DNA of 64,000 nucleotides. Source: an uncultured Nitrospirales bacterium. GTDB taxonomy: Bacteria; Nitrospirota; Nitrospiria; Nitrospirales; NS-4. The position numbers were made by a program, and so were the translations under genes. This document shows, one piece after another, positions 6,174 to 26,960 of this stretch (position 1 is the first letter of the stretch; every line of letters begins with the position of its first letter). Location of the stretch: contig CAYLLY010000003.1 of NCBI GenBank assembly GCA_964384595.1, positions 198-64,197 of the forward strand, written 5' to 3'. The notes beneath the pieces were generated by a model that worked only from the letters and a program-made list of their open reading frames with translations, did no database searches and was not told where the DNA came from.

Positions 6174-6193
6174 CCGGCGGGAGCCCTTGGCCG

Positions 6194-6799
6194 TCAGTAG
6201 GCCTGGATGGGCGGGGGACTTGGAGCGGGGGGGCGCCACTCGGCATATCCGAGAGGAGGCTCAAAGAAAAAGGCGGGCTGTTTCGAAAACACGACGTGTT
6301 CGTACTCGACGGACCAATCACGATCCCGGCTGACGGTCCGCAGGGGAACCCCGTGTTCGACCGACACCCATTGGTAGTACCGTTCAGCCGAAGCTCCGCT
6401 CCCCACGGTGACGTCGTACAGGCGGGACCGGTGCCCGCCGAGTTTCTCTTCGCCCACGAGGACGCGGGCGGTTTCTCCCTCCATGGTTTCCGTGAGCGGA
6501 ATGAGGTGGTCCGGTCGCAGCGGCAGGGAGAGGTACTGTCTGCGCTTCGAGAGGAGCAGCCACACCGCCTGCTTGTCCAGTCGCACGATCGACACCCCGG
6601 CATAGCCCAGGTCGGTGAGCACGCCGCCCCGGTGCTCCAACCGCCACCGGTCGTCCTTCACGTATAATTGCGCCCGCGTTGTTTTCCCGTTCGAGCGGGA
6701 CACATAGTCGGCCGAAAATTCCACGGCAAAGGAGCATTCGACGGAGGCGAAGAACCACAGTGCTCCCGAAGCCGCCGCTGTCAGGCGTGTGATGGTCAC
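6194..6799 (-). CDS. Secreted LolA-like/DUF4412-like protein (function unknown)
   Basis: 201-aa ORF with signal-like N-terminus (AAASGALWFFASVECSFAVEF). It starts 10 nt after the stop of the upstream minus-strand gene. Paralog of 48570-49160 (shared F.AE/ADY...RWR.E.R...YYQWV...R.VS..DW..EY..V.F..Q...FFEPP.GYA). Confidence 0.7.
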   Translation of the reverse strand: MTITRLTAAASGALWFFASVECSFAVEFSADYVSRSNGKTTRAQLYVKDDRWRLEHRGGVLTDLGYAGVSIVRLDKQAVWLLLSKRRQYLSLPLRPDHLIPLTETMEGETARVLVGEEKLGGHRSRLYDVTVGSGASAERYYQWVSVEHGVPLRTVSRDRDWSVEYEHVVFSKQPAFFFEPPLGYAEWRPPAPSPPPIQAY

Positions 6800-10000: not shown

Positions 10001-10999
10001 TCAGTGCCCGGGCGAACTCTTCGGTTTCCCCTTTGCGCCGCCGCCCGGCTTGCTCTTAAGACGGTTGAGCTCGAGGACCTTGTCGGCCAGCACCTGTTTG
10101 GTCTCGGCGAGTTCCCGGCGGAGCCGATCGAGTTCCTCGCTTTGGTCCTGCCGGTTCCGGAACTCCCGTAATCTAGCTCGAAGCTCCTGGTTGGAGTCCG
10201 TCAATTCTTTGATCTGACGCTGGAGCGACTCAAGGATTTCTGAGCCTGGAGCCGGCGCCGCAAGAGGGGACGGCGTTGGAACAGCCTGAAGCGCGCCTGC
10301 CACTCCTGAGGCTCTCCCGGACGGAGGGGCGGGACTCTCGGCCTTGCGGCCGGCGTCCACGTCCGGCGCGGCGACGACCGGCGGCTCCTTGAATCGCCGC
10401 ACGTTGACGGCGACCTCAGTCGGGTGCCCTCCCAGCCATCGTCGCCCGGACTCCTTTTGCTGCTGGACCACCGCATCCGCCGGCTCGTAAGAGAGATCAA
10501 ACCCTTCTTCCGGCGAATCGTAACTCACCTGGCCGAGGGACCGGAATTTGGTGAGCGTCATGTAGAACAGGGGACCGCGCCAGTAGACGGCGCCGCTCGT
10601 CTCCTCCCGGCCTCCCATCCCGCCGGTCCGCGCCAACTGGAACGCCACGCGATCCCGTGGAGACGCGGCCTTGAGTCCGCTGCGGAGCGCAGTCGCGACG
10701 CGAGGCAGTTCGTCCTCGCGAAACACTGGTTCGTGCGGGGATTCGGCAAGCAACGATTGGAGAAGGCCCGTCCGCTTGTGTGCTTTGAGCCCTCTCAGGA
10801 TCACGGCGAGTTGGTCGGCAGTGACGTTCCGCGCATCCGTGTCCGTGGTTGGCGCGGCGTCGCCCGCGGGGTTGGGCTCCAGGCGCACCATCAGGAAGTC
10901 ATCCTGGTAGATCGGAGTCGAGACGGTCTGGAGCAAAGCGCATCCGCCCAGCGCGAGAACAAGCATTACCGTGGTCCATGCTCGTGTGCTCTGTCTCAT
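10001..10999 (-). CDS. Lipoprotein with C-terminal coiled coil (function unknown)
   Basis: Lipobox LALGGC near the N-terminus. C-terminal heptad-like segment LESLQRQIKELTDSNQELRARLREFRNRQDQSEELDRLRRELAETKQVLADKVLELNRLK, then a basic tail. Confidence 0.7.
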   Translation of the reverse strand: MRQSTRAWTTVMLVLALGGCALLQTVSTPIYQDDFLMVRLEPNPAGDAAPTTDTDARNVTADQLAVILRGLKAHKRTGLLQSLLAESPHEPVFREDELPRVATALRSGLKAASPRDRVAFQLARTGGMGGREETSGAVYWRGPLFYMTLTKFRSLGQVSYDSPEEGFDLSYEPADAVVQQQKESGRRWLGGHPTEVAVNVRRFKEPPVVAAPDVDAGRKAESPAPPSGRASGVAGALQAVPTPSPLAAPAPGSEILESLQRQIKELTDSNQELRARLREFRNRQDQSEELDRLRRELAETKQVLADKVLELNRLKSKPGGGAKGKPKSSPGH

Positions 11000-11306: not shown

Positions 11307-13715
11307 ATGGGCATGTTTCGCTCAAGTCTTAAGCGGACCATCATCGTGTATATCTTTTTTGTAGGTCTGATCCCTTTGGGGATCGGCGCTACGCTCGTCT
11401 ATTTCTACGGAACCCGCTCGCTGCAGGATTCGATCGGGATGGGCTTTCAGGAGCTTGCGGTCGAGACTTCGCATCAGGTGGATGCGGTTCTGGAGGCGGA
11501 AATCCAGCGCATGCGCGTCATCGCCAATGTTCCGGTCATCATCAAAGGCCTGGCCTACCGGGCCAACCGACGCTATGACGGCATGCCCGAGGAAGCCGTC
11601 AGGAAATTGCTGGCCAGGCAGGAGGAGGCGTGGGGCGGCAACCAGCTCTCCGATCATGAGGTGTTGTCCAACCGCGCGGCCCGCTTCCTCGTCGAGACCA
11701 AGGAGCTGGCCGGGGACACGATCATGGGGATCCTGGTCACGGACATCCATGGAGTCGTCATCGCCGCCACCTCTCGTCCGAAGCGGTTCACGCACGCGCA
11801 CGAGGCCTGGTGGAAAGGCGCGCTTGACCCGGCCGGGTCCGGTTTCTATATCAGCGATATCGTCGAGAAGGGGCAGGGCACCTTTGCTTCCCAGGGAGAC
11901 ACCCTCGACATCGCCATCCCGATCATGGACGCCAGCCAGGAAAAGCCGGTGGGTGTGCTCAAGGTGTGCTACCGGTTCGACAATCTGTTTGCCCTGATCA
12001 ACAAGATCCGCATCGGCCAGACGGGCCACGGGATGCTGTTCGCCTCCGACGGCACCCCGCTGATTTGCCCGATCCTTCCCCGGACGGCTCATCGGATGGA
12101 TGGCGGGCTGCTCCGGATGATCGTCTCCGAGAAGCCGGGTTGGGTCGTGGCGGAAGATGACGGGCATGGGGCCCGTCAGACCGTGGTCGGTTTCGCGCCC
12201 CTGCAGGGCCTCAAACATCTCAGGGGGGACAGCCTCGGCGGGAAGACCTGGCACGTGTTCATAAGGCAGCATCCGAGCGAGAGCTTCGCCCCGCTGCGGG
12301 ACCTGCTCGTCAAGGTCGGAGGGGTCGGAATCGTCCTCGTGGGGTTTCTGGCCTTCCTCGGCAACTTCGTGGGAACGAAGCTTGTCCGGCCGATCCAGAC
12401 TCTCCACGACGGGGTGGAGGCGATTCGGCGGGGTGACCTGTCCCATCGCGTGTCCCTCAGGACCGGCAATGAACTGGAAGCCCTGGCCGAAACGGTCAAC
12501 AACATGGCGCAGCAGTTGAACGCCTCCAAGGCCGAATTGGAAAGCTGCAACCGTTCCCTCACGGAACAGGTGACCGAGCAGACGAAGGAGCTGACCCGGC
12601 AGGTCCGGCGGATGGATGCGATCCTGAACAACATGGCCGAGGGGCTCATCATCATGAACAGCACATGCGACATCGAGTTCATGAATCCGGCCGCCAGGAC
12701 GCTCTACGGGATGAACATGGGGAAGCGTTGGTCAAATCTGCTCTATGGCCGGGTGAGCCCCTGCACGGAATCCGATCATGCCTGCCCGACCCCCGACTGC
12801 CCGGTTGGCGCCTTGCTTTCCGGGAGTCGCGACGTTTACCAGTACGAAACGAGGGACCAAAAGGGGCGGACCCTGCAGGTCAATATGGTTCCTACCGCCG
12901 GTGAGGAGGGAGAGGGGCTGATCGTTGTTCTCCTTCGGGACGTCAGCCGGGAGTCCAAGCTGAAGAGGCAACTCATGCTCTCCGAGAAACTGGCGACGAT
13001 GGGGAAGATGGCCGGCGGGATCGCCCACGAGATCAACAACCCGTTGGGCATCGTCCTCAACCGGATCGAGTGCATCGAGCGCGAAGCGCGGGGACAGGGC
13101 GTTCCCGCCGGCTTTCTGAAGGACCTCGCCGTCATCAGGAATCACGCCAGCCGGATCGTGCGGATCACCAAGAGCCTGCTGACGTGCTCCCGCGATTCTG
13201 CCATGACGCTGAAGCCGCTTGATGTCAATACGATCGTCAAGGACGCGATGGCTCTCGCCGGAGAGCGGCTGCACAAGGCGGGAGTCAGGATCACGAGCGA
13301 GCTCGCGGAGAACCTGCCCGCCGTCATGGGAGACAAGGACAAGATCGAGACGGTCATCGGGAACCTCCTGGATAACGCCATTGACGCGGTTCCCGCCTCG
13401 GGCGGAACGGTCACGGTGCAGACGCGGAATGTGACTCTCAGCAGGAGCGGCGGTGTGGAGATCGCCGTCTCGGATAACGGACCCGGGGTCTCCCCGGAAT
13501 TCTCGGAACGGGTGTTCGAGCCCTTCTACACGACGAAGCCAGCCGGCAAAGGGACGGGGCTGGGTCTGTTTCTCTGTTATGCGATCGTCAAGGAGCACAA
13601 AGGCGAAATCACCGTGGTCCCCAAGCGGGAGGGCAGAGGCAGCACCTTCCTCGTCACGCTGCCGGGGCTCGAAACTCGAGTCGGGGAGGAAGAGGAATGG
13701 ACGGCAAAATTCTGA
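11307..13715 (+). CDS. Sensor histidine kinase (two TM helices, periplasmic Cache-like domain, HAMP, Cys-containing PAS, HisKA, HATPase)
   Basis: TM1 IIVYIFFVGLIPLGIGATLVYFY and TM2 VGGVGIVLVGFLAFLGNFVG. HAMP RPIQTLHDGVEAIRRGDLSHRV. H-box HEINNPL. N/G boxes DNAIDA, DNGPGV, GTGLGL. Confidence 0.9.
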   Translation: MGMFRSSLKRTIIVYIFFVGLIPLGIGATLVYFYGTRSLQDSIGMGFQELAVETSHQVDAVLEAEIQRMRVIANVPVIIKGLAYRANRRYDGMPEEAVRKLLARQEEAWGGNQLSDHEVLSNRAARFLVETKELAGDTIMGILVTDIHGVVIAATSRPKRFTHAHEAWWKGALDPAGSGFYISDIVEKGQGTFASQGDTLDIAIPIMDASQEKPVGVLKVCYRFDNLFALINKIRIGQTGHGMLFASDGTPLICPILPRTAHRMDGGLLRMIVSEKPGWVVAEDDGHGARQTVVGFAPLQGLKHLRGDSLGGKTWHVFIRQHPSESFAPLRDLLVKVGGVGIVLVGFLAFLGNFVGTKLVRPIQTLHDGVEAIRRGDLSHRVSLRTGNELEALAETVNNMAQQLNASKAELESCNRSLTEQVTEQTKELTRQVRRMDAILNNMAEGLIIMNSTCDIEFMNPAARTLYGMNMGKRWSNLLYGRVSPCTESDHACPTPDCPVGALLSGSRDVYQYETRDQKGRTLQVNMVPTAGEEGEGLIVVLLRDVSRESKLKRQLMLSEKLATMGKMAGGIAHEINNPLGIVLNRIECIEREARGQGVPAGFLKDLAVIRNHASRIVRITKSLLTCSRDSAMTLKPLDVNTIVKDAMALAGERLHKAGVRITSELAENLPAVMGDKDKIETVIGNLLDNAIDAVPASGGTVTVQTRNVTLSRSGGVEIAVSDNGPGVSPEFSERVFEPFYTTKPAGKGTGLGLFLCYAIVKEHKGEITVVPKREGRGSTFLVTLPGLETRVGEEEEWTAKF

Positions 13716-15073
13716 TCATAGACGACGAGCCGGAGCTGCTCGAGAATTGCCGCCGCATCCTCTCAACGAGCGGCTATCGGTGTCTGACCGAAACCGATCC
13801 GGTCAAGGCCATTGGCGAGATCGAGCGGGAACACCCCGCCCTGATCCTGACGGACCTGAGGATGCCGACCATGAGCGGGATCGAAGTGGTGAAGGCGGCC
13901 AAGAAAATCGACCCGGATTCGGTGGTGATCTTGTTTACCGCCTTTGCGGCGGTGGAGACGGCCGTCGCCGCCATGAGGGAAGGGGCCTTCGACTACCTCT
14001 CGAAGCCGTTCTCGTCCGCCGATTTCGAGCTGGTCGTGCAGCGGGCCATGGAGCACTACAACATCCTCCATGAGAACAAGTATCTGCGCTCCCAGCTCCA
14101 GGAGCGTTTCTGCTTCGACAAGGTGATCGGCGTCAGCGAGGCGATGCAAGAGGTGTTCTCGCTTGTTCAGAAGGTCGCCAAAGCCCAGTCGAATGTCTTG
14201 ATTTACGGGGAAAGCGGGACGGGGAAGGAACTGATCGCGCGGACGATCCACGCGAACGGTCCCCGTGCGGCCAGGCCGTTCATCCCCGTCGACTGCGGCT
14301 CCCTGGCGGAGACGCTTCTGGAGTCCGAGCTCTTCGGGCACGAGAAAGGGGCCTTCACGGGCGCCCATGCGACCAAGCAGGGCTTGTTTGAGGTGGCCGA
14401 AGGGGGCACGATCTTTCTGGACGAAATCGGGGGGATGAGTCTGAACCTCCAGTCTCGCCTGCTCCGTGTCCTCCAGGAGCGCCAGGTCAGGCGAGTCGGC
14501 GGCACGAGATTTCTTGACGTGGATGTCCGGGTTATTTCGGCCTCGAACCGGGACCTGAAGGAAGCGATCAAGAACGGGACGTTCCGCGAAGACCTGTTTT
14601 ACCGTCTGAACGTGGTACAGATCACTCTGCCGCCCCTCCGTGGCAGAGCCGGGGATGTCCCGATCTTGGCGAACGCCTTTCTGCGACACTTTGCGGAAGC
14701 CAATAAGGAGACGGTCAAAACGCTTGACCCGCGCACGGTCCGCTGCCTTGAGGAATATCACTGGCCTGGCAACATCCGGGAACTGAGGAACGTGATCGAG
14801 CGCGCGGTCACCCTGGTGGATGGCCCGACGTTGTTGCCCGAGCACCTTCCCGAAGGCATCAGGTACGGGGCTCTCGAAGAATCCCGGGCCGAGGGGTCGA
14901 CGATGATGGCTGCGAAACAGGCCATCATCGGCGCCTTCGAGCGCAATTACTTGGTGGACCTGCTCAAGAGACACAAGGGACACATCGGGCACTCGGCCCA
15001 AGAGGCCGGGGTGGATCGGAAGACAGTCGAGCGCATGCTCAAGAAACACGGCCTCAAAGCCAACGGGAACTGA
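13697..15073 (+). CDS. Sigma-54-dependent response regulator (NtrC family enhancer-binding protein)
   Basis: Receiver ILIIDDEPELL...LILTDLRMP. AAA+ Walker A GESGTGKE. Sigma-54 contact motif GAFTGA. C-terminal HTH HSAQEAGVDRKTVERMLKKHGL. Overlaps the kinase gene by 19 nt. Confidence 0.92.
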   Translation: MDGKILIIDDEPELLENCRRILSTSGYRCLTETDPVKAIGEIEREHPALILTDLRMPTMSGIEVVKAAKKIDPDSVVILFTAFAAVETAVAAMREGAFDYLSKPFSSADFELVVQRAMEHYNILHENKYLRSQLQERFCFDKVIGVSEAMQEVFSLVQKVAKAQSNVLIYGESGTGKELIARTIHANGPRAARPFIPVDCGSLAETLLESELFGHEKGAFTGAHATKQGLFEVAEGGTIFLDEIGGMSLNLQSRLLRVLQERQVRRVGGTRFLDVDVRVISASNRDLKEAIKNGTFREDLFYRLNVVQITLPPLRGRAGDVPILANAFLRHFAEANKETVKTLDPRTVRCLEEYHWPGNIRELRNVIERAVTLVDGPTLLPEHLPEGIRYGALEESRAEGSTMMAAKQAIIGAFERNYLVDLLKRHKGHIGHSAQEAGVDRKTVERMLKKHGLKANGN

Positions 15074-15075
15074 TC

Positions 15076-18000
15076 TTACTTCTCCTTCGCGCCACGCAGG
15101 CTCTGCAACAGCTTGAGTGCCGGCTCGTGATAGGGATTGATCTGCAGCAGTCGCTCCAGCTCCGCGATGGCCAGTTCCCTCCGGTGAGCTTTCAGGTAGA
15201 CATCGGCCAGATGTAAACGGGCCTCCGTGCTGCCGGGATAGAAGGTGAGGACGTGTAGCAGCGCATCGCGCGCTTTCTCGAAGTCTCCGGCCGCGTGATA
15301 GGCCCCGGCGAGGGTCAGGTAGTATTGATAGTCCCGCTCATTCTGTGGACCCATCTCCTGCAGCAGCTCGATGGCCGGGCCTAACTCCCGGCGCTCGGCA
15401 AGAATGCCGATCAGTGCGGACCGCGCCGTCTTGTCGCTCCGGTCGCGCGTGAGGGCCTCCGCGTACATGACCCTCGCCTTCGAAAGGTCTCCCTTGAGGC
15501 CGTAGACCTGGCCCAGCACCTTGCGGGCTTCGGTCGAGTCCGGCGAATATTTCAAGGCCATGGTCGCCGAGGTCTCGGCCCCTTCGATCTGGTGCAGCTT
15601 CAAATTGATCTGCGCCAGCCGAATGTGGGCGGGACCGTTCTCCGGCGACCGCTGAATGTTGGACAGCAGGCGGTCCCGTTCCTGCCGGAGGCGGGGGCCG
15701 TCCCGTTGCAGTTTTTCATAGGCGATCCTCATCGAGTTTCGCGCGCGCTCCTGGTGGAACCGGACGTTGCCGTCCGCAGGGTCGATGACGGCGGCCTCCT
15801 CGAGTGCGGCCTCATCCCCGAAGAAGAAATACCGTTGCATGGCACGCGCGAGAACCTGCCGCTCCTCCACGAGGCGCAGATCGTCCGCGCTCGCGCCTCT
15901 CAGGTACGGTTGGATGCTCGTCTGATGCCGGTCGAAGCTCTGGGTGCTGAGGGGCGTGTTCCCGCGAACGGCATGCTTCTGACTGTAGGGCAGGTCGTCG
16001 GTGTTGGTGCGATGTTCATCACCGATGAATCGCGCGATCGCGTCCGGATCCATGACGAAAAATCCGGCCAGGCGGGCCGCGCGGTCCAATTGGTATTGTT
16101 TGAGCCGGACCGTTGCGGACGCCTGGTCGAGGCGTTTTTGAATCCGCGGCAGATCGAAGATAAAGGGGCCCGGTGTGGCGATCAGGAAGGCCTGGTCGGT
16201 CCCATAGATGTTCCAAAGCGTGGTGTTCGGGAAGACCGTGGTGAAGGTTTTGAGCAGGATGCGGAAGTTTTCGACCGAGATGTCGCTGAGCGGGATCCAT
16301 TGGGCGAAGACGCCGTCCGGCGTCAGGCGATTCCTGACCGTGCGGTAGAACTCCTCCGTATACAAGATCCAACTGTCATACGCGCGGGGATGAGTCGAGT
16401 CGGAAATGATGACGCCGTACCGTTTTGAACTCCGCAGCAGGAAATTGCGGCCGTCTTCGGCGACAAAGCGGAATCGGGGATCGTGGTAGACATCACCGTT
16501 GATCTCCCGGAAAAGCTCATTGATGGAGGCCACGTCCGGATTCAAGTCCACGCACGTCAGGGATGAGACCAGCCCGGAGCCCAAGGTCGCCCCGGAGGCG
16601 ATCCCCGCGCCGAACGCCACCATGAGGGCCTCCTGCGGAGCATCGGAGGGGTGCATGACGGCCGGCAGGAGACCAAGGAGCTTGAACAATTGCACGTGCC
16701 CGAAGCGCGTGGACGCCTCTTCGACGCCGTTCAGGAACATATCGCGAAATCCGAGCCACGGGAAATCCAGGACGATCGCCGTGGCGACGGCTCCTTCATG
16801 GTACAGGCGGACCGCCGGGTCGGGATCCTGCCCGCTGTAGGAGGCCAGCTTGCGCGTGTACAGGTCTTCCAGTACGTGCGGGCGATAGGCCAGTACGCCG
16901 ATCGCCAAGAGCGCTGCGGCCAGCGCGACTCCCAATTTCTTCATGGGAGCCTGAAGCGCCAGCAACAGGAGCAAACCGGCCCCCAGGCACGCCACGGAGA
17001 AGACGGCCAGGACGCCTTCGATTCCCAGAAGCGGGACCAGAAAGGCGTTGGTGAGGCCGGACCCGAGCATCCCGCCGACAGTATTCACCGCGTACAGAGT
17101 GCCGGCGTTGCTCACGGAGGCCGAGGGACCGAGAGGGGACCGGAGCACGCGAATGGCCAGCGGGAGGAGGCTGCCCAGGATGCATGCCGGCACCAGGAGA
17201 ACGATCACCACGAATGTGTCCGGCAAGTGTGTTACCCGGCCGAGTTCGACCTGCGAGAGGTGGAGGAGAAGAAGGGGGGGCGCCAGAACGGCCGGACCTG
17301 CCAGCATGGTGAAACCGGCCAGGGCCGGTCCGCTTCCTTGGACATGCGAGCCCAGGACCGTCGCTCCCAGCGCGCTGAGCCCCACGCCCATGAGGAAGGC
17401 GGTGACGACGAGGGTGAAGACGAGCAGCTCGTTCCCGAAATACAGGATCACGAGCCTCGTGACGAGGACTTCATATGAAAGGGCGATGAACCCGGTCACG
17501 AAGGTGCTTATGAGGACGATGTATCTCAGGGCCGGCGGGAAAACGGGGTCAGACCCCGTTTTGTCGGCGGGTTCTCCCTCTCCCCGAAGAAGGAAAACGG
17601 GGTCTGACCCCGTTTTCGCCTTCGCGAGCCCTTCGATTGCCAGCCCGCCTGAAGCCGCCAGGAGACTCAGGCCGCATGCCCATGCGAGTGTGAGGTCGGC
17701 CCCCCAGCGAGGCAGCAGGAAATAGCCCGCCACAACGGCTCCGAACGCCGCGCCCAGGGTGTTCACCCCGTAGAGATAGCCGGTGCGGGACGCGGTCAAG
17801 GGCGAGCCGACCGAGGCTGAGCCTGCCAGGATGGCTGGAAACGTCGCGCCCATCAGGAACGCCGGGACGAAGAGGCAGGCAAAGGCAAAGGCCAGCCTCA
17901 CGAGCTGCATCACGGGAAGAGACGCGGAGTCGCCGGCGACTAGGAGGTAGAGCTGTGATGCCGGATCGAACAAGTAAGGAGAAGAGACCGCATAGGCGCC

Positions 18001-18330
18001 GACACCGACCTCCAGCCAGGCGTACACCCTCAGGGACGGCCGTCTCCGGCTGAGCATGCGGCCGCTCACATAGCTTCCGAAGGCCAGACCACCCATGAAG
18101 GCGGCCAGGATCATGCTGGTCGCCGCGAGTGTGTTGCCGAGGACCAGCACGAGCATCCGCGCCCAGGTGATCTCGCAGATCAGGCTGCTCGCCCCGGACA
18201 GGAAGAAGATCGAGTAGAGCAGGATGAGTCGGGCGCGAGAAGAATTGGGGTCAGAGTCGGATTGTTGGTTTTTTGCCAGGCCCACGGTCTTCGCACTCCT
18301 CAAAAATCGACTCTGACTCCAATTCTTCAA
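15076..18330 (-). CDS. Fused polytopic membrane / spermidine-synthase-like methyltransferase-fold / TPR protein
   Basis: 1084-aa ORF. N-terminal multi-TM part (LLYSIFFLSGASSLICEITWARML...). Central SpeE-like fold (ALMVAFGAGIASG...VDLNPDV...YGVIISDSTHP). C-terminal TPR repeats. The start is a TTG at 18330 with GGGG 5 nt upstream, so the start is uncertain. Confidence 0.82.
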   Translation of the reverse strand: MKNWSQSRFLRSAKTVGLAKNQQSDSDPNSSRARLILLYSIFFLSGASSLICEITWARMLVLVLGNTLAATSMILAAFMGGLAFGSYVSGRMLSRRRPSLRVYAWLEVGVGAYAVSSPYLFDPASQLYLLVAGDSASLPVMQLVRLAFAFACLFVPAFLMGATFPAILAGSASVGSPLTASRTGYLYGVNTLGAAFGAVVAGYFLLPRWGADLTLAWACGLSLLAASGGLAIEGLAKAKTGSDPVFLLRGEGEPADKTGSDPVFPPALRYIVLISTFVTGFIALSYEVLVTRLVILYFGNELLVFTLVVTAFLMGVGLSALGATVLGSHVQGSGPALAGFTMLAGPAVLAPPLLLLHLSQVELGRVTHLPDTFVVIVLLVPACILGSLLPLAIRVLRSPLGPSASVSNAGTLYAVNTVGGMLGSGLTNAFLVPLLGIEGVLAVFSVACLGAGLLLLLALQAPMKKLGVALAAALLAIGVLAYRPHVLEDLYTRKLASYSGQDPDPAVRLYHEGAVATAIVLDFPWLGFRDMFLNGVEEASTRFGHVQLFKLLGLLPAVMHPSDAPQEALMVAFGAGIASGATLGSGLVSSLTCVDLNPDVASINELFREINGDVYHDPRFRFVAEDGRNFLLRSSKRYGVIISDSTHPRAYDSWILYTEEFYRTVRNRLTPDGVFAQWIPLSDISVENFRILLKTFTTVFPNTTLWNIYGTDQAFLIATPGPFIFDLPRIQKRLDQASATVRLKQYQLDRAARLAGFFVMDPDAIARFIGDEHRTNTDDLPYSQKHAVRGNTPLSTQSFDRHQTSIQPYLRGASADDLRLVEERQVLARAMQRYFFFGDEAALEEAAVIDPADGNVRFHQERARNSMRIAYEKLQRDGPRLRQERDRLLSNIQRSPENGPAHIRLAQINLKLHQIEGAETSATMALKYSPDSTEARKVLGQVYGLKGDLSKARVMYAEALTRDRSDKTARSALIGILAERRELGPAIELLQEMGPQNERDYQYYLTLAGAYHAAGDFEKARDALLHVLTFYPGSTEARLHLADVYLKAHRRELAIAELERLLQINPYHEPALKLLQSLRGAKEK
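17540..17562. repeat. Perfect 23-bp palindrome inside the CDS (copy 1)
   Basis: AAAACGGGGTC-A-GACCCCGTTTT, with 11-bp arms. Translated in frame as KTGSDPVF. Confidence 0.9.
17594..17616. repeat. Perfect 23-bp palindrome inside the CDS (copy 2)
   Basis: AAAACGGGGTC-T-GACCCCGTTTT, 54 bp (18 codons) from copy 1. Also translated as KTGSDPVF. Confidence 0.9.
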
Positions 18331-18352
18331 ATTGACCCCAATTCTTCAAATT
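18315..18352. repeat. 19-bp tandem direct repeat spanning the putative start codon of the 15076-18330 gene
   Basis: GACTCCAATTCTTCAAATT (18315-18333) and GACCCCAATTCTTCAAATT (18334-18352), with one mismatch. Confidence 0.85.
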
Positions 18353-18360
18353 CTTCTAGG

Positions 18361-18375
18361 GCAATTTGTATGCCT
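18361..18375 (-). promoter_or_regulatory. Candidate sigma-54 (-24/-12) promoter facing the 15076-18330 gene
   Basis: The minus strand reads AGGCAT-ACAAA-TTGCC. GG-N10-GC spacing is exact. It lies about 30 nt upstream of the TTG start. Confidence 0.4.
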
Positions 18376-18685
18376 GCTGTCTTGCATAGGCCGGTTTCGA
18401 TGGGACTCCGGCGCCCCATTCCGACATTGCCTCCCTGCATCCGCATTAATCGTTTGAAAACGCGCAATCTTAGCGCGCCTTGCCCATCCCGATCCGACAA
18501 AGTTGTCTGCCCGCTGGCGCACGATACTCTCAGCCGGCGCAGCGGTGCGCGTCGAAGAGGACTCGACAATGCTCGGTAAAACAACACGTTGAGAAGGGCA
18601 CAGTCGAATCGCTCCTCGATGCAGACAACAGGCAAGGATCATGCTCTAGGTGCAAGGGGCGCTCTGTTCATCTGGAGGTTATACC

Positions 18686-20125
18686 ATGCGAAGGTGGGCA
18701 CAAATAAGCGGAACGGTCTGCGGAGTTGCGGCAATTGCCGCTCTTGTGTGGGTGGCGCCGGCGCTGGCGCAAAGCACGCAGGAAGAGATCGATGCGATCA
18801 AGAAGCGGGTGGGGCAGTTGGAGGAAAAGCAGAAGAAGGCCGAATGGACCGAAAAGCTCAAGATCAGCGGGCAGCTGGGCCTACGGACGGAATTCATCAC
18901 CAATGAGAATTTCAACACAGGCGATGAAGAGCGCTGGCGCGAGCGGGTCCGCATCCGGTTGCAGTTCACTTACGATGTGAACCCGCAGTTCATGGCGGGA
19001 TTCCGCCTGAGCACGGGGGATCCGCGGTTCCCGAGCACCGGATGGGAGACCTTCGGGGGCGGCAGCAGTGGTTCCGGCACTAATGTTACCGCCGACGGCT
19101 TCGAGAACAGCAGCTCCAGGTTCCGCGTCGGCTTTGACCGTGCCTGGGTGACGTGGAAGCCGACCTCGGCGCTGAAGCTGAACTTCGGCAAGTTCGAGCT
19201 CCCGTTCTTCAAGCCCCAGGCGGTCTGGGGGTCTGGCATCTGGTGGGACGACGACGTGCAGCCGACGGGCGCCTCGCAGACCCTCAGCCTTCCGACCGGC
19301 GGCGCCCTCAAGTCGTTGCGGCTGACCTTCGGCGAGTTCCTCTTCCAAGAGCTTCGAGACGATTTGAACCCGGCCCGGGGCTCCGGGTGGGTCGGCGGGC
19401 AACTGAGCGGTGTGGTGGCCCCGACGCCTGACATAGATGTCTCGGCCGGGCTTGGGTTCTACTCGTTTATGAATCCCCACCGGCTGGTCCAGGGAGGCAC
19501 GGGCGGGATGATCACCCTGGACAGCGGCAACTACAACAACCGGTACACCAACCGGACGACTTTTCGTGGTTTTGCTCCAAGCGCCAACTGCGGCAACAGC
19601 TTCACTACAAGCTGTGGAGACCTTGTTTCCGAGTACCAGTTGCTGAACCTCAGTTTTCAGGGAGACATCAAAACCGGACGCTATCCGATTCTGCTCACGG
19701 CGGACTACATCAACAACGTGGGGGCCAGCGCTGACCCCCTGACGAAAACCGGCCACAAGAACAACGCGTTCCTTGTGGGAGCCGCCGTCGGGTCCACGAA
19801 GGATCCCGGAAACTGGCGCTTGGGCTACTGGTATTATTACAGCCAGGCCGACTCGGCCCTCGCGATGTTCGTCGATGATGATTATCAGTTTACGAACGTG
19901 AAGAGCCACATCATTGATTTCCAGTATCGGATTTGGAAGGGTGTGCTGCTTCAGTGGGACAACTACTTCCAGAAGTTCGAGGACTCCCAGCTCGCCAACA
20001 TGCAAGGGATCCCTGCAGGGACGGGGTGCACGGCGGCAGGTATTGGGGGAGCAGGAACGGGGTGTACGTTCTTTTCTGACCCGCTCAAGTGGCGGAGCCG
20101 AATCAGCGTGCTGGTGAATTTCTAG
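18686..20125 (+). CDS. Putative outer-membrane beta-barrel porin with N-terminal coiled coil
   Basis: ATG18686 after ggagg (18674-18678). Signal peptide ending APALAQS. Coiled coil QEEIDAIKKRVGQLEEKQKK. Alternating amphipathic strands. C-terminal ...RISVLVNF with a terminal Phe. Confidence 0.78.
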   Translation: MRRWAQISGTVCGVAAIAALVWVAPALAQSTQEEIDAIKKRVGQLEEKQKKAEWTEKLKISGQLGLRTEFITNENFNTGDEERWRERVRIRLQFTYDVNPQFMAGFRLSTGDPRFPSTGWETFGGGSSGSGTNVTADGFENSSSRFRVGFDRAWVTWKPTSALKLNFGKFELPFFKPQAVWGSGIWWDDDVQPTGASQTLSLPTGGALKSLRLTFGEFLFQELRDDLNPARGSGWVGGQLSGVVAPTPDIDVSAGLGFYSFMNPHRLVQGGTGGMITLDSGNYNNRYTNRTTFRGFAPSANCGNSFTTSCGDLVSEYQLLNLSFQGDIKTGRYPILLTADYINNVGASADPLTKTGHKNNAFLVGAAVGSTKDPGNWRLGYWYYYSQADSALAMFVDDDYQFTNVKSHIIDFQYRIWKGVLLQWDNYFQKFEDSQLANMQGIPAGTGCTAAGIGGAGTGCTFFSDPLKWRSRISVLVNF

Positions 20126-20141
20126 TAGACCCTGTTCGGTA

Positions 20142-21158
20142 ATGGACAGCGAAGCCCAGATCGCCATGCCACCGGCCGATGGCGAGATCGTGTGCGCCTG
20201 CTACAACCTGAGGCGGCAAGATCTGCAGTCCATGCTCGCGGCCGATCCGGCGCTGTCCTTCGAAGCGCTGATGAACGAGACGGGGGCCGGCAAGCTCTGT
20301 ACGGCCTGCATGCTCGATCTCGAGTACCATTTCGTGACGCTTCCGCGAACCGGCAGGACCGGAGGGCCCTGGCTTCGTGTTGATCCGGTCCAAGCGCCCA
20401 CGTTCCGGCGGCGAGTCTGGCGTCTCCTGGATCGCCTCTCACCCCTGATGCCCGTGCCGCTGACCGAGTACATGCCCGTGCTGACCGGCGACGGGATCGA
20501 GCAGTGGGTCTGGGTGGCCAACCACTCATTGCTCTATGACGACAAGGAACGCCCTCCGGACTTCGACGTGGTCATAACGGTGAGAGACTCGGAAGGGCGG
20601 GTCAGATATCGGGAAGCGCACGGGATTGCCCAGGGCGCCGCCTTGCATCTGAACGTGTCCCAATTTCTGCCCCTGCCGGAACGGCAGCCGGGACCTCCAC
20701 TGCCCGGGATCGGGTCCGTCACGATCGAGAGGCGCGCCCTCAGGCCGGGGTTCCGCGGGACAATCCGGCCGCAGATCGAGATCATCGCGCCGGCCGGCAG
20801 TTGTGCCGTACACACGCAGGCTCCCAGCGTACACCCTGCTGCGCAATGGTTCCCGAATCTCTACCGGCCGCGCGATGAACGGCTGTTCTTCAGTATCGTG
20901 AACGCCTCCCGGGGACCGCTGGAGGTCGAGTTCGCTTATCCGTTCGACGCTGCCCGAAGGGGTATTGCCCCCGTCGTCGAAACGGTGCGGGTGCCACCGG
21001 GCGGAGCGCGTCTGCATGAGATTGTCTTGCCGGAAGCCGAGGCGGTGCGGTTCGTCGATCGGCTGTACAGCATCCGATGGCGATCGTCCGGCGCAAGAAA
21101 GGTTCACGTACTGTGCGCGACTCCGGCCTTGGACCGGTTTTCAATCGATCACCTGTAG
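20142..21158 (+). CDS. Protein with N-terminal BFD-like [2Fe-2S]-binding motif and uncharacterised C-terminal domain
   Basis: VCACYNL...x...GKLCTACMLDL (C-x-C ... C-x2-C). I do not recognise the remaining ~270 aa. Confidence 0.72.
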   Translation: MDSEAQIAMPPADGEIVCACYNLRRQDLQSMLAADPALSFEALMNETGAGKLCTACMLDLEYHFVTLPRTGRTGGPWLRVDPVQAPTFRRRVWRLLDRLSPLMPVPLTEYMPVLTGDGIEQWVWVANHSLLYDDKERPPDFDVVITVRDSEGRVRYREAHGIAQGAALHLNVSQFLPLPERQPGPPLPGIGSVTIERRALRPGFRGTIRPQIEIIAPAGSCAVHTQAPSVHPAAQWFPNLYRPRDERLFFSIVNASRGPLEVEFAYPFDAARRGIAPVVETVRVPPGGARLHEIVLPEAEAVRFVDRLYSIRWRSSGARKVHVLCATPALDRFSIDHL

Positions 21159-21166
21159 GACGCCAT

Positions 21167-22003
21167 ATGTCGTACCCGTTCATCTTCCCGTGCATCGTGC
21201 ATCTGCCGGCCGGATATGACTGCACCATCCCCCTGCCGTATGAGAGTGTCGCGGATCGGCTGATCGGGGGCAATGGGACGGTCACCTACGGGGTCCAGGT
21301 TTTCTGCGCCGGCGCGAAGCGGGCCGAGTGGAGCGAGAAGCTCATCTTTGCAAACGGCGGCTTGGTCGGACCCCCGCCTGACCCATTCACCTGGCGGGAC
21401 GCGGGCGAGGACTGGGGTGGCAACTCCGGCTACCTTGAATTGAGCTTGCAGGCCGCCGATGCCCGTCCGATATTTCATGCCCGGGCGCCGATCAGCTTTT
21501 ACTCGATCTATACCAAGCCTGGGAAGAAGGCCTTCTTCTCCGACAACGCGTACAAGTATGGGGCCCCGCCGGTCATCGCCCAGATCGCGGCGTTCGGCCG
21601 ATTTGTGGAGGGCTATCCGGTCGTTCATCTCGACCGGGAACGTGACCTCGGCCAGACGCTCGCCCTGATCAATCCCTATAAGAAGGTGGTCAGTGCCCGC
21701 ATCTTCACCTGTGACGGCCGGGCGCTCGGGCCGTTGAAGGTCCAGCCGGCCAGCGTGCGCCTCATTCGGCTGACGGATTTGTTGCGGCCTGATGAGACCT
21801 CATGGGCGGGACAGCTCCAGCTCACCGCCAACAATCGGGTGGTGACCTACGTCATGATGCATTCGTTGCGGAGCCCGTGCGTCTTATCGGACCATGAGCA
21901 CTTGGATGTTTTCCGCAGCGATCCGACTCATATCCCGGCCTTTCAGCTTCTCCGGCGCCGGATCGGTCAGCTCCTTAGGTCTCGGGGGTTCGTCATAAGG
22001 TGA
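21167..22003 (+). CDS. Hypothetical protein
   Basis: ATG21167 lies 8 nt after the previous stop (track ORF starts at 21077, inside the previous gene). High-GC3 coding pattern. No recognisable motif. Confidence 0.65.
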   Translation: MSYPFIFPCIVHLPAGYDCTIPLPYESVADRLIGGNGTVTYGVQVFCAGAKRAEWSEKLIFANGGLVGPPPDPFTWRDAGEDWGGNSGYLELSLQAADARPIFHARAPISFYSIYTKPGKKAFFSDNAYKYGAPPVIAQIAAFGRFVEGYPVVHLDRERDLGQTLALINPYKKVVSARIFTCDGRALGPLKVQPASVRLIRLTDLLRPDETSWAGQLQLTANNRVVTYVMMHSLRSPCVLSDHEHLDVFRSDPTHIPAFQLLRRRIGQLLRSRGFVIR

Positions 22004-22242
22004 GATGACCGGCTGGGACCGCGACTCCGCATTGGGACATTCTTTCCCGATTCGGCGAAATGACTTGAAAACACAAAGACTTGCCCCGGTTCGGCGGCGT
22101 TCGCAGCTGCTGAAGGCGTCTCATTGTACGGGGAGAAGAAGGCGCAACAGCCCTACGCAGGCATACAGGCCATCCGCCGGAATCCATCGTTTTTTCAAGT
22201 CAATAGGCCGCGCCACCCAGGAAGCTCCTTGGGGAAAGCTGA

Positions 22243-22258
22243 TGGCATCGCCATTGCT
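22243..22258 (+). promoter_or_regulatory. Sigma-54 (-24/-12) promoter candidate for the peroxidase/Rieske/Mo-enzyme array
   Basis: TGGCAT-CGCCA-TTGCT (consensus TGGCAC-N5-TTGCW) with exact GG-N10-GC spacing. It sits in a 383-bp non-coding gap, about 130 nt upstream of the 22387 start. Confidence 0.55.
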
Positions 22259-22386
22259 GTATCCGAAGAAAAGGGAAAAGGGAAACCTGCAAGCCTTGGT
22301 TCGAGAAAGGGGGGATGGTGCAAGGAGGTCGGAGCAAGGAGCAGGTTCGAGAAAAGGCGTAAGACAGCCTGAAAGGGGGGAGTGAA

Positions 22387-23589
22387 GTGGAGAGAAAAAA
22401 GAACAAACTATGGACATTCGTCATTTTGCTGTTCGGTGTGGCGATTGTGGCGGCTATGACGATGGCGTGGACCGCCTGGGCCGGAAACAACGAGGGCAAG
22501 ACCCCTCGTCCGCTCGCGGCCCTGCCGCCGGGCCCGCACCCGGGACCGGCGGACAACCCAACCACTCCGGAGAAGGCCAAGCTGGGGGAGTTGCTCTTCT
22601 TCGAGCAGCGGTTGTCGGGTGACGGGAGCACGCCCTGCTCCAAGTGCCATGATCCGAAGCAGGGATGGGGAACGACGGACGATCTCTCGATCGGCTATCC
22701 GGGGACGCAGCACTTCCGCAACTCGCACACAGTCCTCAACACCGGTCACCTGAAGAAGTATTTCTGGGAGGGCCGGGCCACGAGTCTTGAGGCCCAGGCC
22801 GGCGGCGCGGCGGGCGGGCAATCGGCCGGCAATCTCCAGTTCGACATAGGGGAGGCCCGGATGCGCCAGGTGCCGGAGTACCGGGAGATGTTCATGAAGG
22901 TCTTCGGCGAACTGCCGACCTGGGACAACGCGGCGCGGGCGATCGCGGCCTTCCAGCGGACGTTGAACTCGGATCCAAAGGTAGTCCCGTTCGACCGTTA
23001 CATGAACGGCGACAAGAGCGCCATGACCCCGCAGCAGGTCAAGGGCATGGAGCTCTTCAAAGGCAAGGCCAACTGCATCGCCTGCCACGATGGGATGATG
23101 TTCACCGACGAGGACCATCACAATCTCGGCCTGCCGCGCAACCCGGCCTTCGACGACGATCCGCTCAGGCAGATCGAGTTGCGGTTCCGCATGAAGTCGA
23201 ACGGCATCCAGAACTACAACGAAGTGGACGAGGATTTGGGACTCTACATGGCGACCCACCGGACGCAGGACATCGGGCGGTTTCGCACCGAGAAGCTGCG
23301 TGAGTCGAAGCACACGGCGCCGTACATGCACAACGGCGTCTTTTCCACGCTGGAGGAAGTCGTCGAGTTCTACGACAAGGGCGGCGAGGAGCCGGGCAAG
23401 TTCAAGGGCGTCAAGGACCCGCTCATGAAACCGCTGGAGCTGACGGCCGACGAGAAGAAGGCATTGGTGGCGTTCCTCGAGGCGCTCAGCAGCCCTGAGA
23501 CTCCGTTCAAGGACATCAACCCGGTCCTGCCGAAGGACGGGATCGTCACGGTGGACAAAAAAGTCGTGCCGCTGCCGGCCGGCAAGTAG
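22387..23589 (+). CDS. Di-haem cytochrome c peroxidase (CCP/MauG family)
   Basis: GTG start after gggggag. N-terminal TM/signal. Two CxxCH motifs (CSKCHD, CIACHDG). Conserved APYMHNGVFSTLEEVVEFY segment. Confidence 0.9.
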   Translation: MERKKNKLWTFVILLFGVAIVAAMTMAWTAWAGNNEGKTPRPLAALPPGPHPGPADNPTTPEKAKLGELLFFEQRLSGDGSTPCSKCHDPKQGWGTTDDLSIGYPGTQHFRNSHTVLNTGHLKKYFWEGRATSLEAQAGGAAGGQSAGNLQFDIGEARMRQVPEYREMFMKVFGELPTWDNAARAIAAFQRTLNSDPKVVPFDRYMNGDKSAMTPQQVKGMELFKGKANCIACHDGMMFTDEDHHNLGLPRNPAFDDDPLRQIELRFRMKSNGIQNYNEVDEDLGLYMATHRTQDIGRFRTEKLRESKHTAPYMHNGVFSTLEEVVEFYDKGGEEPGKFKGVKDPLMKPLELTADEKKALVAFLEALSSPETPFKDINPVLPKDGIVTVDKKVVPLPAGK

Positions 23590-23607
23590 GTAGGAGGTAC
23601 AACGACG

Positions 23608-24231
23608 ATGGACGAGAAGGAAACCAAAGACAGCAAACTGAAGATGCTCAAGGAATTGGGCGAGGATGTGGGATGCATGACGCGCCGCAAGCTGCTCTTC
23701 CTGGGCGGCTTGGCCACGGCCACGACGCTGCTCCCGCCGGCCGTTGCGGACACGCTTGCCGCGGCGCCGAAGGCCAAGCCCAAGGAGGCGTCGAAGAAAC
23801 CGACGCCGGTGGCGATGCAGAGCACGCATTACCCGAGAAAGAAAGTCGGCAAATTGAGCGCGTTGAAACAGGACGAGCCGGTGAAGATCTCCTATCCGGC
23901 CGAGCATCCGAATCACAAGGCGCTGCTCATCAAACTGGGCGTGCCGGCGCTCGGCGGCGTGGGTCCGCAGAAGGACGTGGTGGCGTTCAGCGCGCTGTGC
24001 GTCCACCAGGGCGGACCGCTCGAAGACCGGTACAACGCGAAGGAAAAGATCATGGGGCCGTGCGAATTCCATCTCTCAATGTACGATCTCACGAAGCACG
24101 GGATAATCACGAGCGCGTCGGCGACCCAGAACCTCCCGCAAGTTGTGCTGGAGGTGGAAGGGGACGACATTTACGCGGTAGGGATGCAGGGGCTCATCTA
24201 CGGGTTCCCGGACAACCTGCTGCCCGTCTAG
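23608..24231 (+). CDS. TAT-exported Rieske [2Fe-2S] small subunit, AioB/IdrB-like
   Basis: RBS aggagg (23591-23596). Twin-arginine TRRKLLFLGGLATA. Rieske boxes CVHQGG and CEFH (C-x-H ... C-x2-H). 18-nt gaps to both neighbouring genes. Confidence 0.88.
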   Translation: MDEKETKDSKLKMLKELGEDVGCMTRRKLLFLGGLATATTLLPPAVADTLAAAPKAKPKEASKKPTPVAMQSTHYPRKKVGKLSALKQDEPVKISYPAEHPNHKALLIKLGVPALGGVGPQKDVVAFSALCVHQGGPLEDRYNAKEKIMGPCEFHLSMYDLTKHGIITSASATQNLPQVVLEVEGDDIYAVGMQGLIYGFPDNLLPV

Positions 24232-24249
24232 ACGTAAGGGGGTGAAGAC

Positions 24250-26931: not shown

Positions 26932-26960
26932 TGGGGGACAGATTTGAAATCTGTCCCCCA
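26932..26960 (+). other. Perfect intergenic stem-loop (14-bp arms)
   Basis: TGGGGGACAGATTT-G-AAATCTGTCCCCCA, 13 nt after the Mo-subunit stop. No following T-tract. Confidence 0.8.

Follow-up and report, generated by a model that had tools for sequence, protein, structure and literature searches.

What are two perfect palindromes doing inside the coding sequence of a membrane protein? In the 64 kb stretch of DNA analysed here, which we refer to as the window, two palindromes of 23 bp each, P1 and P2, lie within the gene for a fused MFS/spermidine-synthase-like protein (Table 1). The reading we favour, with a probability of roughly 70%, is that P1 and P2 are two inverted copies of a REP-type hairpin repeat, neutral or selfish DNA that is tolerated in a disordered loop of the protein. 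The open reading frame called mechanically for the host gene spans 15076-18330 on the minus strand (1084 codons). The recorded start lies 15 codons later, which is why an exact-protein look-up of the 1084-aa translation returned no record. The closest named homologs of the protein come from Elusimicrobiota, at 44-50% identity.

Table 1. Coordinates of the host gene, the palindromes and the other hairpin features in the window
Feature	Position	Strand	Description
Host gene, fused MFS/spermidine-synthase-like membrane protein with C-terminal TPR repeats	15076-18285	-	Database copy P0001, 1069 aa, start GTG 18285
Palindrome P1	17540-17562	.	AAAACGGGGTC-A-GACCCCGTTTT = AAAACGGGGTCAGACCCCGTTTT; GGGGTCAG on + strand; encodes K257-F264 (KTGSDPVF)
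Disordered inter-domain loop, residues 240-263	17542-17613	-	AlphaFold pLDDT <50, coil; hypervariable in orthologs
P1-P2 spacer	17563-17593	-	31 nt; encodes LLRGEGEPAD; loop of the P1:P2 hairpin
Palindrome P2	17594-17616	.	AAAACGGGGTC-T-GACCCCGTTTT = AAAACGGGGTCTGACCCCGTTTT; GGGGTCAG on - strand; encodes K239-F246 (KTGSDPVF)
Family-A hairpin element	18239-18347	.	Arms 18239-18259/64 and 18305/08-18328; extra half copy 18333-18347; overlaps the 5' end of the host gene
Intergenic 29-bp palindrome	26932-26960	.	TGGGGGACAGATTT-G-AAATCTGTCCCCCA; just after ORF 24250-26919

A preliminary description of this DNA had placed the two palindromes 54 bp apart with the same in-frame peptide, and both the coordinates and the frame were confirmed. 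P2 is the exact reverse complement of P1, including the centre base, and the start-to-start distance corresponds to 18 codons, so that both fall in one frame of the 1084-codon ORF; the local peptide is AKAKTGSDPVFLLRGEGEPADKTGSDPVFPPALRY and the repeat-derived stretch runs from K239 to F264, 26 amino acids in all. Each palindrome is built on the core GGGGTC-W-GACCCC and flanked by (G)AAAAC and GTTTT(G/C), and the doublet with its spacer measures 77 bp in a genome of 63% G+C. Treated as one inverted repeat, the pair has arms at 17539-17562 and 17594-17617. With one mismatch allowed, GGGGTCWGACCCC matched nothing in the 64 kb beyond P1 and P2 (shuffle mean 0.13), and the full 23-mer at three mismatches likewise found these two alone (shuffle mean 0.00). 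Searched with up to five mismatches, a further 19.5 kb of the contig outside the window, which brings the total to 83.5 kb, yielded no other copy, and neither did about 70 kb from the loci of four relatives.

We observed that the encoded peptide coincides with a very particular part of the protein. In the AlphaFold model residues 240-263 lie between helices 180-239 and 266-298 and have no secondary structure, the segment being the sole low-confidence coil between two transmembrane helices and separating the two halves of the membrane domain. A check of the protein model, which had been proposed at the outset, thus returned disordered coil instead of a structured loop. The proposed comparison with orthologs gave the following: the loop is unrelated in length and sequence and cannot be aligned among 23 orthologs, the palindrome peptide is not conserved in them, and the close relatives carry decayed copies or other elements in its place. 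The preliminary description had suggested that a motif unique to this spot and conserved in distant orthologs would be ordinary coding sequence; the motif is indeed unique in the 83.5 kb, but its peptide is not conserved.

Outside this genome the palindrome is a dispersed repeat. The 19-mer AACGGGGTCWGACCCCGTT occurs at more than 120 loci in species-representative genomes, some assemblies having several, and we surveyed 892 kb of sequence from the listed loci. This sequence contained 169 GGGGTC-N-GACCCC palindromes, while any other 6+1+6 palindrome was present at most 16 times. Dimers spaced 21-108 bp apart were common, with 24 pairs among the listed loci, and their commonest orientation was the A-then-T arrangement of the window. 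Coding potential was judged by a codon-position G+C test, adopted in place of a crude long-ORF test that is uninformative in high-G+C DNA; by this measure about 1-3 of the 115 evaluable copies among the listed loci were spanned by a coding-like ORF. Among the matches listed, the palindrome is therefore clustered, almost always extragenic and often dimeric, in at least five phyla. In 600 kb of metagenome DNA retrieved with the arm of a different hairpin, the family-A element described below, the core palindrome was present at one locus only.

The listed loci also point to a partner protein. Ten of the 120 encode a Y1_Tnp protein, and in eight of these ten the palindrome lies on both sides of the gene within 311 bp. 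These loci are from Actinomycetes, Planctomycetota, candidate-phyla-radiation bacteria, Firmicutes and Omnitrophota. The NCBIfam model that best fitted the tested proteins was the REP-associated tyrosine transposase (RAYT) NF047646, at 68-78 bits and so just below its 80-bit cut-off, compared with 22-27 bits for the IS200 model. The RAYT-like protein of one locus, L101, had no close match by sequence among solved structures. A Y1 transposase gene was absent from the window, the 19.5-kb extensions and the relatives' loci (83.5 kb plus about 70 kb). In other genomes the palindrome is dispersed and flanks RAYT-like genes, in line with the earlier suggestion of a mobile element; here the pair stands by itself with no transposase gene in 83.5 kb, so mobility in this genome is something we infer. 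We found no clean target-site duplication around the pair. Measured against a MITE, inverted ends are present, the 7-bp repeat CGGCGGG flanks P1, but with a 2-bp offset and without a counterpart in the relative L122, which makes it unconvincing as a duplication, and no parent IS was seen.

How does this arrangement compare with known systems? REP and REPIN sequences with their RAYT proteins are represented by the REP/BIME elements of E. coli with TnpA-REP and by the REPINs of Pseudomonas. The resemblance lies in the short stem-loop palindrome, single units of 23-25 bp, perfect except for the centre base, falling within the range of about 20-40 bp for such elements; in the inverted dimers with a short spacer; in the mostly extragenic position where the repeat is present; and, at the listed loci of other genomes, in copies on either side of a Y1/HUH transposase gene that is matched best by NF047646. 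P1 and P2 also show the REPIN layout, in which an inverted dimer forms one long hairpin (arms complementary at 24 of 24 positions, 31 nt apart, -67 kcal/mol). They differ from REP/REPIN systems in that the palindrome is perfect save the centre base and lacks a GTAG or CGTC end tag, in the sub-cut-off scores of the transposases at the listed loci, and in the solitary pair without a transposase gene in 83.5 kb of this genome. The Rickettsia palindromic elements are about 100-150 bp long, specific to Rickettsia, and encode conserved peptides in frame in many genes of one genome. The parallel drawn with them in the preliminary description stands for the phenomenon, an in-frame palindromic insertion in a protein-coding gene, but not for size or sequence: the units here are 23 bp (77 bp as a doublet) in a G+C-rich genome, occur in one gene in the available sequence and encode a peptide that is not conserved.

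Further precedents are found in Di Nocera et al. (2013, PMC3733652), where two REP super-families are described, end-tagged GTAG or CGTC, and where intragenic REPs are documented, mostly dimers encoding 20-30 amino acids and some of them at N-termini. P1 and P2 match this picture as an in-frame dimer encoding 26 amino acids, and the family-A element at the 5' end of the host gene resembles the N-terminal cases. The in-frame hairpin pair is thus a clear-cut instance of something already described and not a new phenomenon. The same paper reports the motif GGGGWSAS for TIR repeats flanking TIRYT genes and gives a few genomes (PMC3733652). Compared by motif, the two share several features: GGGGTCAG fits GGGGWSAS and is present a single time in each palindrome, P1 and P2 having it on opposite strands, as well as in family A and in a hairpin of the relative L123; both kinds of repeat come as singles, dimers or groups; and RAYT-like genes are what they flank. 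That the repeat takes a self-complementary 13-nt form, GGGGTC-W-GACCCC, and that this form is spread over five or more phyla are observations of this analysis, made on the matches listed. A full-text literature search with the core sequences matched nothing relevant.

Several close relatives carry the same loop in a different condition. L122 has a copy at the P1 site only, with two mismatches. L123 has a copy at the P2 site, also with two mismatches, and at its P1 site a 63-bp hairpin that ends in GGGGTCAG...CTGACCCC. All four substitutions in these copies are non-synonymous, so the peptide is under no constraint. In L124, an ortholog at 77% identity, the loop contains instead, in frame, a rod-like hairpin of about 140 bp that is demonstrably dispersed, a second copy being intergenic and about 80% identical; the differences between the copies occur on both sides of the stem and preserve the pairing. 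Seen together, the relatives display successive states: a perfect pair, a decayed single copy, a larger hairpin and an unrelated element.

These observations make a tolerated palindromic element in a protein loop, one of the readings offered in the preliminary description, the best supported, through the disordered and hypervariable loop, the dispersed RAYT-flanking repeat elsewhere and the element in L124. We propose the following course of events. RAYT-like HUH/Y1 transposases of the IS200/IS605 superfamily presumably recognise the repeat as a single-stranded DNA hairpin, and the repeat would have entered the non-conserved linker between the membrane-domain halves in an ancestor shared by the three sampled species that are closest. 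Insertion probably began at the P1 site, towards the gene's 3' end, and reached the P2 site, towards its 5' end, later. The repeat would have survived because its frame has no stop codon, the 54-bp spacing keeps the frame and the loop is structurally unconstrained, and its DNA would then be transcribed and translated as KTGSDPVF twice within the loop. We see no sign that the peptide or the mRNA hairpin has a function, and the sequence is probably best regarded as selfish or neutral DNA that the gene tolerates.

It is also possible, though we think it unlikely, that the palindromes arose in place, fold-back or template-switch errors having perfected a quasi-palindromic loop (R-T-G-S/A-P codons) and a further template switch having copied it, inverted, to the other site. 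The 5' arm of the P2 site on the coding strand (AAA ACG GGG) aligns with the ancestral loop codons CGG ACG GGN, or R-T-G, in L122 and L125; R-T-G is likewise found in protein P0007 and R-A-G in P0006. This alignment also counts against the favoured reading, since part of the palindrome may be old coding sequence and not inserted DNA. A small palindrome, GGCGGAC-GG-GTCCGCC, sits at the same place in L125, and the lack of other copies in 83.5 kb and of a clean target-site duplication would also agree with a local origin. However, the ancestral codons share only about 5-6 nt, whereas 19-23 nt are identical to the RAYT-flanking repeat of several phyla, and convergence of this kind twice in one loop is improbable. 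Furthermore, the L124 loop demonstrably took in a dispersed element, and the longer hairpin of L123 has the same ends as the repeat.

Less probable again is that the pair is kept for its RNA structure, as a translation-dependent attenuator or terminator, as an RNase III site within a perfect 24-bp duplex, or as a translational pause between the membrane-domain halves. The loop RNA does fold into this 24-bp stem with z = -7.2, and the corresponding loops of L123 (z = -3.7) and L124 (z = -5.7) also contain strong hairpins, of unrelated sequence. Both copies are also perfect although the host gene has diverged by about 12% from its relatives, which could hint at selection or ongoing correction and counts against the favoured reading as well. 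Against such a role, the single copies left in L122 and L123 each carry two mismatches that break the stem, which means that pairing between P1 and P2 has not been conserved, and the loop folds weakly in L122 (z = -0.7) and L125 (z = -2.1). Rfam, applied to the whole window at the gathering threshold and to 17300-18600 and six related loci at an E-value threshold, gave only sub-threshold matches to generic, miRNA-like hairpins. The shape of a bidirectional terminator had been noted before, and the G+C-rich stem is present, but the four U residues pair with the A run, leaving no unpaired U-rich tail as required of an intrinsic (Rho-independent) terminator; a consensus scan called neither palindrome. 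The earlier proposal of an intragenic attenuator or RNA-processing site is therefore not supported.

We also considered a broader version, to which we attach still lower credence, in which unrelated hairpin repeats have landed repeatedly in the mid-gene linker of this protein family (three element types among four closely related species) and are retained since a very stable mRNA structure at this place is useful. Such a structure might pause translation to help the protein insert into the membrane co-translationally, or serve as a control point for RNase III, and the perfect copies would be kept matched by selection or mutual correction. Finally, a palindrome by chance in ordinary coding sequence, or an assembly artefact, would agree with a motif unique within the window but is refuted by the shuffle statistics (two perfect 23-mers against 0.00 expected), by the ortholog comparison and the relatives' non-synonymous substitutions, and by the identity of the 161 bp around the pair in three independent assemblies (the Logan assembly, SRR5747861, and JGI metagenome assemblies 3300025157 and 3300009444).

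As a tolerated REP-type repeat, the pair offers a well-resolved case of selfish hairpin repeats turned into part of a protein, the peptide coinciding with its sole disordered loop. The occurrence of GGGGTC-W-GACCCC alongside RAYT-like genes in distant phyla could help in studying how transposases recognise hairpins. For annotation, KTGSDPVF and SDSDPNSS, the latter derived from family A, flag repeat-derived segments and not conserved protein motifs.

The family-A element is an inverted repeat of about 90 bp, GAAGAATTGGGGTCAGAGTCGA...TCGACTCTGACCCCAATTCTTC, that has displaced the original start region of the host gene. The sequence at 18242-18262, previously taken for a degenerate relative of the palindromes, is in fact the right-hand arm of this separate element and has only GGGGTCAGA in common with P1 and P2. 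When metagenome DNA was scanned with its arm, family A proved abundant. The sole other GGGGWSAS-type hairpin pair in the window is the intergenic 29-bp palindrome, whose GGGGACAG fits the motif.

We confirmed the two 23-bp palindromes, P1 and P2, that the preliminary description had reported in a minus-strand membrane-protein gene, and its reading of each copy as KTGSDPVF: both lie in the same frame of the ORF 15076-18330, within the peptide AKAKTGSDPVFLLRGEGEPADKTGSDPVFPPALRY. P1 is the exact reverse complement of P2, including the centre base, and as an inverted pair their arms are complementary at 24 of 24 positions with 31 nt in between. A scan for the 19-mer AACGGGGTCWGACCCCGTT in one genome per species returned at least 120 loci (892 kb of sequence). 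Hosts among the matches listed include Actinomycetes (Gaiellales, Thermoleophilia, Solirubrobacterales), Planctomycetota, Acidobacteriota, candidate-phyla-radiation lineages, Clostridia, Omnitrophota and others; some of these assemblies hold several loci, and the flanks extend the palindrome in lineage-specific ways. In the same listed matches GGGGTC-N-GACCCC occurs 169 times in 892 kb, and no other 6+1+6 palindrome exceeds 16 occurrences, so that extra copies cluster near the selected ones. Pairs spaced 21-108 bp are common among them (24 pairs), the centre-base order A then T, as in the window, being the most frequent type. A coding-like ORF spans about 1-3 of the 115 evaluable copies listed (codon-position G+C test), and the intragenic position in the window is an exception for the core palindrome. 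In one Gaiellales locus (L028) the palindrome at 2385-2403 appears to lie within an ORF (1417-2706, plus strand) that is coding-like on both sides, with third-position G+C of 0.90 and 0.92. The protein is small and Cys-rich, the palindrome is again translated KTGSDPVF (...GRGAKTGSDPVFAGK...), and this may be a second in-frame case.

By motif search and local tblastn, 10 of the at least 120 loci listed contain IS200-like Y1 transposase ORFs. All four ORFs tested from these ten passed the Pfam Y1_Tnp threshold. For three of three proteins scanned the best NCBIfam model was NF047646, "REP-associated tyrosine transposase" (RAYT), at 68-75 bits, slightly below its cut-off of 80 bits; the IS200 model gave the same three 22-27 bits. 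GGGGTC-W-GACCCC lies on both sides of the transposase gene, within 311 bp, in 8 of the 10 loci among the matches listed (as a half-site on one flank of L101), which matches the published arrangement of RAYT genes and their REPs. Di Nocera et al. 2013 (PMC3733652) report GGGGWSAS as a motif common to the repeats found beside some RAYT-like genes, termed "TIRYT". GGGGTCAG fits this motif; each palindrome contains it once, and the strand that carries it in P1 is opposite to that in P2. A 13-nt self-complementary core common to RAYT-flanking repeats in at least five phyla may merit separate study.

Palindromes, hairpins and inverted repeats in the window and its close relatives (L122-L125)
Feature	Coordinates	Sequence or form	Remarks
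P1	17540-17562	AAAACGGGGTC-A-GACCCCGTTTT	
P2	17594-17616	AAAACGGGGTC-T-GACCCCGTTTT	
L123, first copy (P2 site)		AAAAaGGGGTCAGACaCCGTTTT	two mismatches
L123, second site (P1 site)	10712-10774	63-bp hairpin GGGGTCAGGAACCATTTG...CAAGTGGTTCCTGACCCC	in frame, translated GVRNHLCAAPGWPFRQVVPDP
L122, second copy alone (P1 site)		cAAACGGtGTCTGACCCCGTTTT	two mismatches
L124, loop		~140-bp rod-like hairpin, ends GAAAATGCGGGT/ACCCGCATTTTC	in frame; -75 kcal/mol, z = -5.7
L125, loop		unrelated perfect hairpin	10-bp stem
Family A, general form		GAAGAATTGGGGTCAGAGTCGA + variable spacer + TCGACTCTGACCCCAATTCTTC	
Family A, window	18239-18328		extra half copy 18333-18347
Intergenic palindrome	26932-26960	TGGGGGACAGATTT-G-AAATCTGTCCCCCA	perfect, 14+1+14; just after molybdopterin-oxidoreductase gene

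The host gene encodes a fused MFS/spermidine-synthase-type membrane protein whose C-terminal part consists of TPR repeats, matching Pfam Spermine_synth, Pfam TPR families and NCBIfam NF037959; the version on record (P0001) is 1069 aa long, with its start at GTG 18285. In an AlphaFold2 model with 24 homologs as input (mean pLDDT 78), only one internal stretch longer than 11 residues, 240-263, both falls below pLDDT 50 and lacks secondary structure; low confidence also applies to residues 1-26 of the mechanical ORF. The T of the first KTGSDPVF and the V of the second delimit the stretch 240-263, and the loop between hydrophobic blocks proposed earlier is borne out as an unstructured coil between helices 180-239 and 266-298. 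Among 23 orthologs the linker is highly variable in length and unalignable, and the adjoining helices are well conserved. From the low-pLDDT segment and the unalignable linker it follows that the palindromes code for an inter-domain loop that is disordered and free of constraint.

We recovered four syntenic relatives, with nucleotide identities to the window over the gene of 88% (L122), 84-89% (L123), ~80% (L124) and ~77% (L125); copies are counted in gene direction, the first being at the P2 site. In this comparison with orthologs L122 and L123 each keep one mutated copy, and all four substitutions in these decayed copies are nonsynonymous (T to K, P to T, K to Q and G to V), so that the peptide is not conserved and is free of constraint. 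L124 shows that a dispersed hairpin element sits in frame within the same loop: a second, intergenic copy, ~80% identical, lies 3.7 kb away (6122-6263 and ~2385-2520), and the two differ on both sides of the stem with pairing preserved and carry no GGGGWSAS motif. The in-frame hairpin of L123 belongs to a third type, with ends GGGGTCAGGAACC...GGTTCCTGACCCC, also present at 38-81 of L058, a Gaiellales genome that contains the core palindrome; its arm has one exact match in viral contigs (L247).

We favour, with a probability of roughly 70%, the explanation that a RAYT-associated REP-type hairpin of the GGGGWSAS class entered an unconstrained linker, became an inverted dimer and was tolerated there. 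Its entry would date to an ancestor shared by the three closest species, and in relatives the element decays or is replaced. The pair is probably tolerated because the frame used is open and the 54-bp spacing preserves it. REPs lying in frame inside genes have been described from several species (PMC3733652); they encode 20-30 aa, over half of them are dimers or grouped repeats, and some are located at N-termini. Among larger in-frame intragenic repeats the classic example is that of the Rickettsia palindromic elements (PMC10969869). P1/P2 differ from the latter in size and sequence and fall outside both the GTAG and the CGTC REP super-families, and they are a further case of the already documented in-frame intragenic REPs, in an uncultured 63% G+C lineage. 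Of the small mobile palindromic element in a protein loop that had been suggested, the repeat class and the disordered loop stand, but neither a further 23-mer copy nor a Y1 transposase gene was found in the window, the four relatives' loci or the 19.5 kb of contig sequence adjoining the window ends, and by analogy with other genomes we infer repetition and mobility in this one. No convincing target-site duplication was seen at the palindromes.

On the coding strand, the first copy has a 5' arm (AAA ACG GGG) that aligns with ancestral loop codons CGG ACG GGN (R-T-G), seen in L122 and L125 DNA and as R-T-G or R-A-G in the P0006 and P0007 proteins, and part of this copy may be old coding sequence. 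The overlap leaves room for template switching or conversion from the other copy. An origin in place via template switching would account for the shared ACGGG and for the lack of other copies, but we consider it unlikely as it leaves the identity to a cross-phylum repeat unexplained. The loop RNA of the window folds into a P1:P2 stem of 24 bp (-67 kcal/mol, z = -7.2), and this very stable duplex of two perfect copies could point to a working RNA element; the z-scores in L123, L122 and L125 are -3.7, -0.7 and -2.1. We regard such a role as improbable, and the attenuator or RNA-processing site first envisaged is not upheld, as each relative has lost one partner and with it the pairing, there is no free U tail and no Rfam match lies above threshold. 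Chance palindromes in ordinary coding sequence and artefact are excluded, P1 and P2 being the sole matches in 64 kb to the core with up to one mismatch (shuffle mean 0.13) and to the 23-mer with up to three (0.00), the encoded peptide not being conserved in orthologs, with 161 bp at the site identical in a Logan and two JGI assemblies of the same organism.

The site at 18242-18262, previously taken for a degenerate relative of the palindrome, is one arm of a different repeat, family A. This family occurs at three more sites in the relatives (intergenic in L123, gene 5' and 3' ends in L125), and a metagenome scan with its arm (GAATTGGGGTCAGAGTCG...) returned at least 119 loci (L128-L246), mostly from soil, where it is very abundant. 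Outer arms are conserved among the matches listed and inner stems vary, often perfectly paired; copies are sometimes tandem or nested, with two GGGGTCWGACCCC palindromes inside one in L154. As it is dispersed and its arms flank RAYT-like genes beginning MARLGRYFLPDQPLH in L162, L210, L221 and L226, family A is a second GGGGWSAS-type family. In the region 18239-18375 it stands in place of ~88 bp that in L123 (9940-10060) include the ATG and the opening 17 codons, so that the host gene start now lies inside the element. GTG 18285, in the hairpin spacer and with GAGGAG ten bases upstream, is the sole usable start in the window and most likely the one used, which would make the first ~18 residues (MGLAKNQQSDSDPNSS...) repeat-derived. 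GGGGWSAS inverted pairs in the window are limited to the in-gene pair and the intergenic palindrome (chance expectation ~0.03). The orthologous spacer in L123 (~120-200) has different GGGGACAG/CTGTCCCC repeats instead, and the palindrome is a second GGGGWSAS-type repeat site, turning over between relatives.

The neighbourhood of the host gene is conserved (window 11307-26919 and loci L122-L127). To one side it has genes for a sensor kinase (dCache/HAMP/HisKA) and a sigma-54 response regulator; on the other are a Porin_5 protein, two unknown proteins and a CCP_MauG peroxidase, followed by a Rieske_3 and molybdopterin oxidoreductase pair similar to arsenite oxidase. Just past the window's right end there is a V-type ATPase operon (L249). 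Over all 64 kb the cumulative GC skew increases monotonically, and nearly all genes are on the plus strand, the host gene being among the few on the minus strand.
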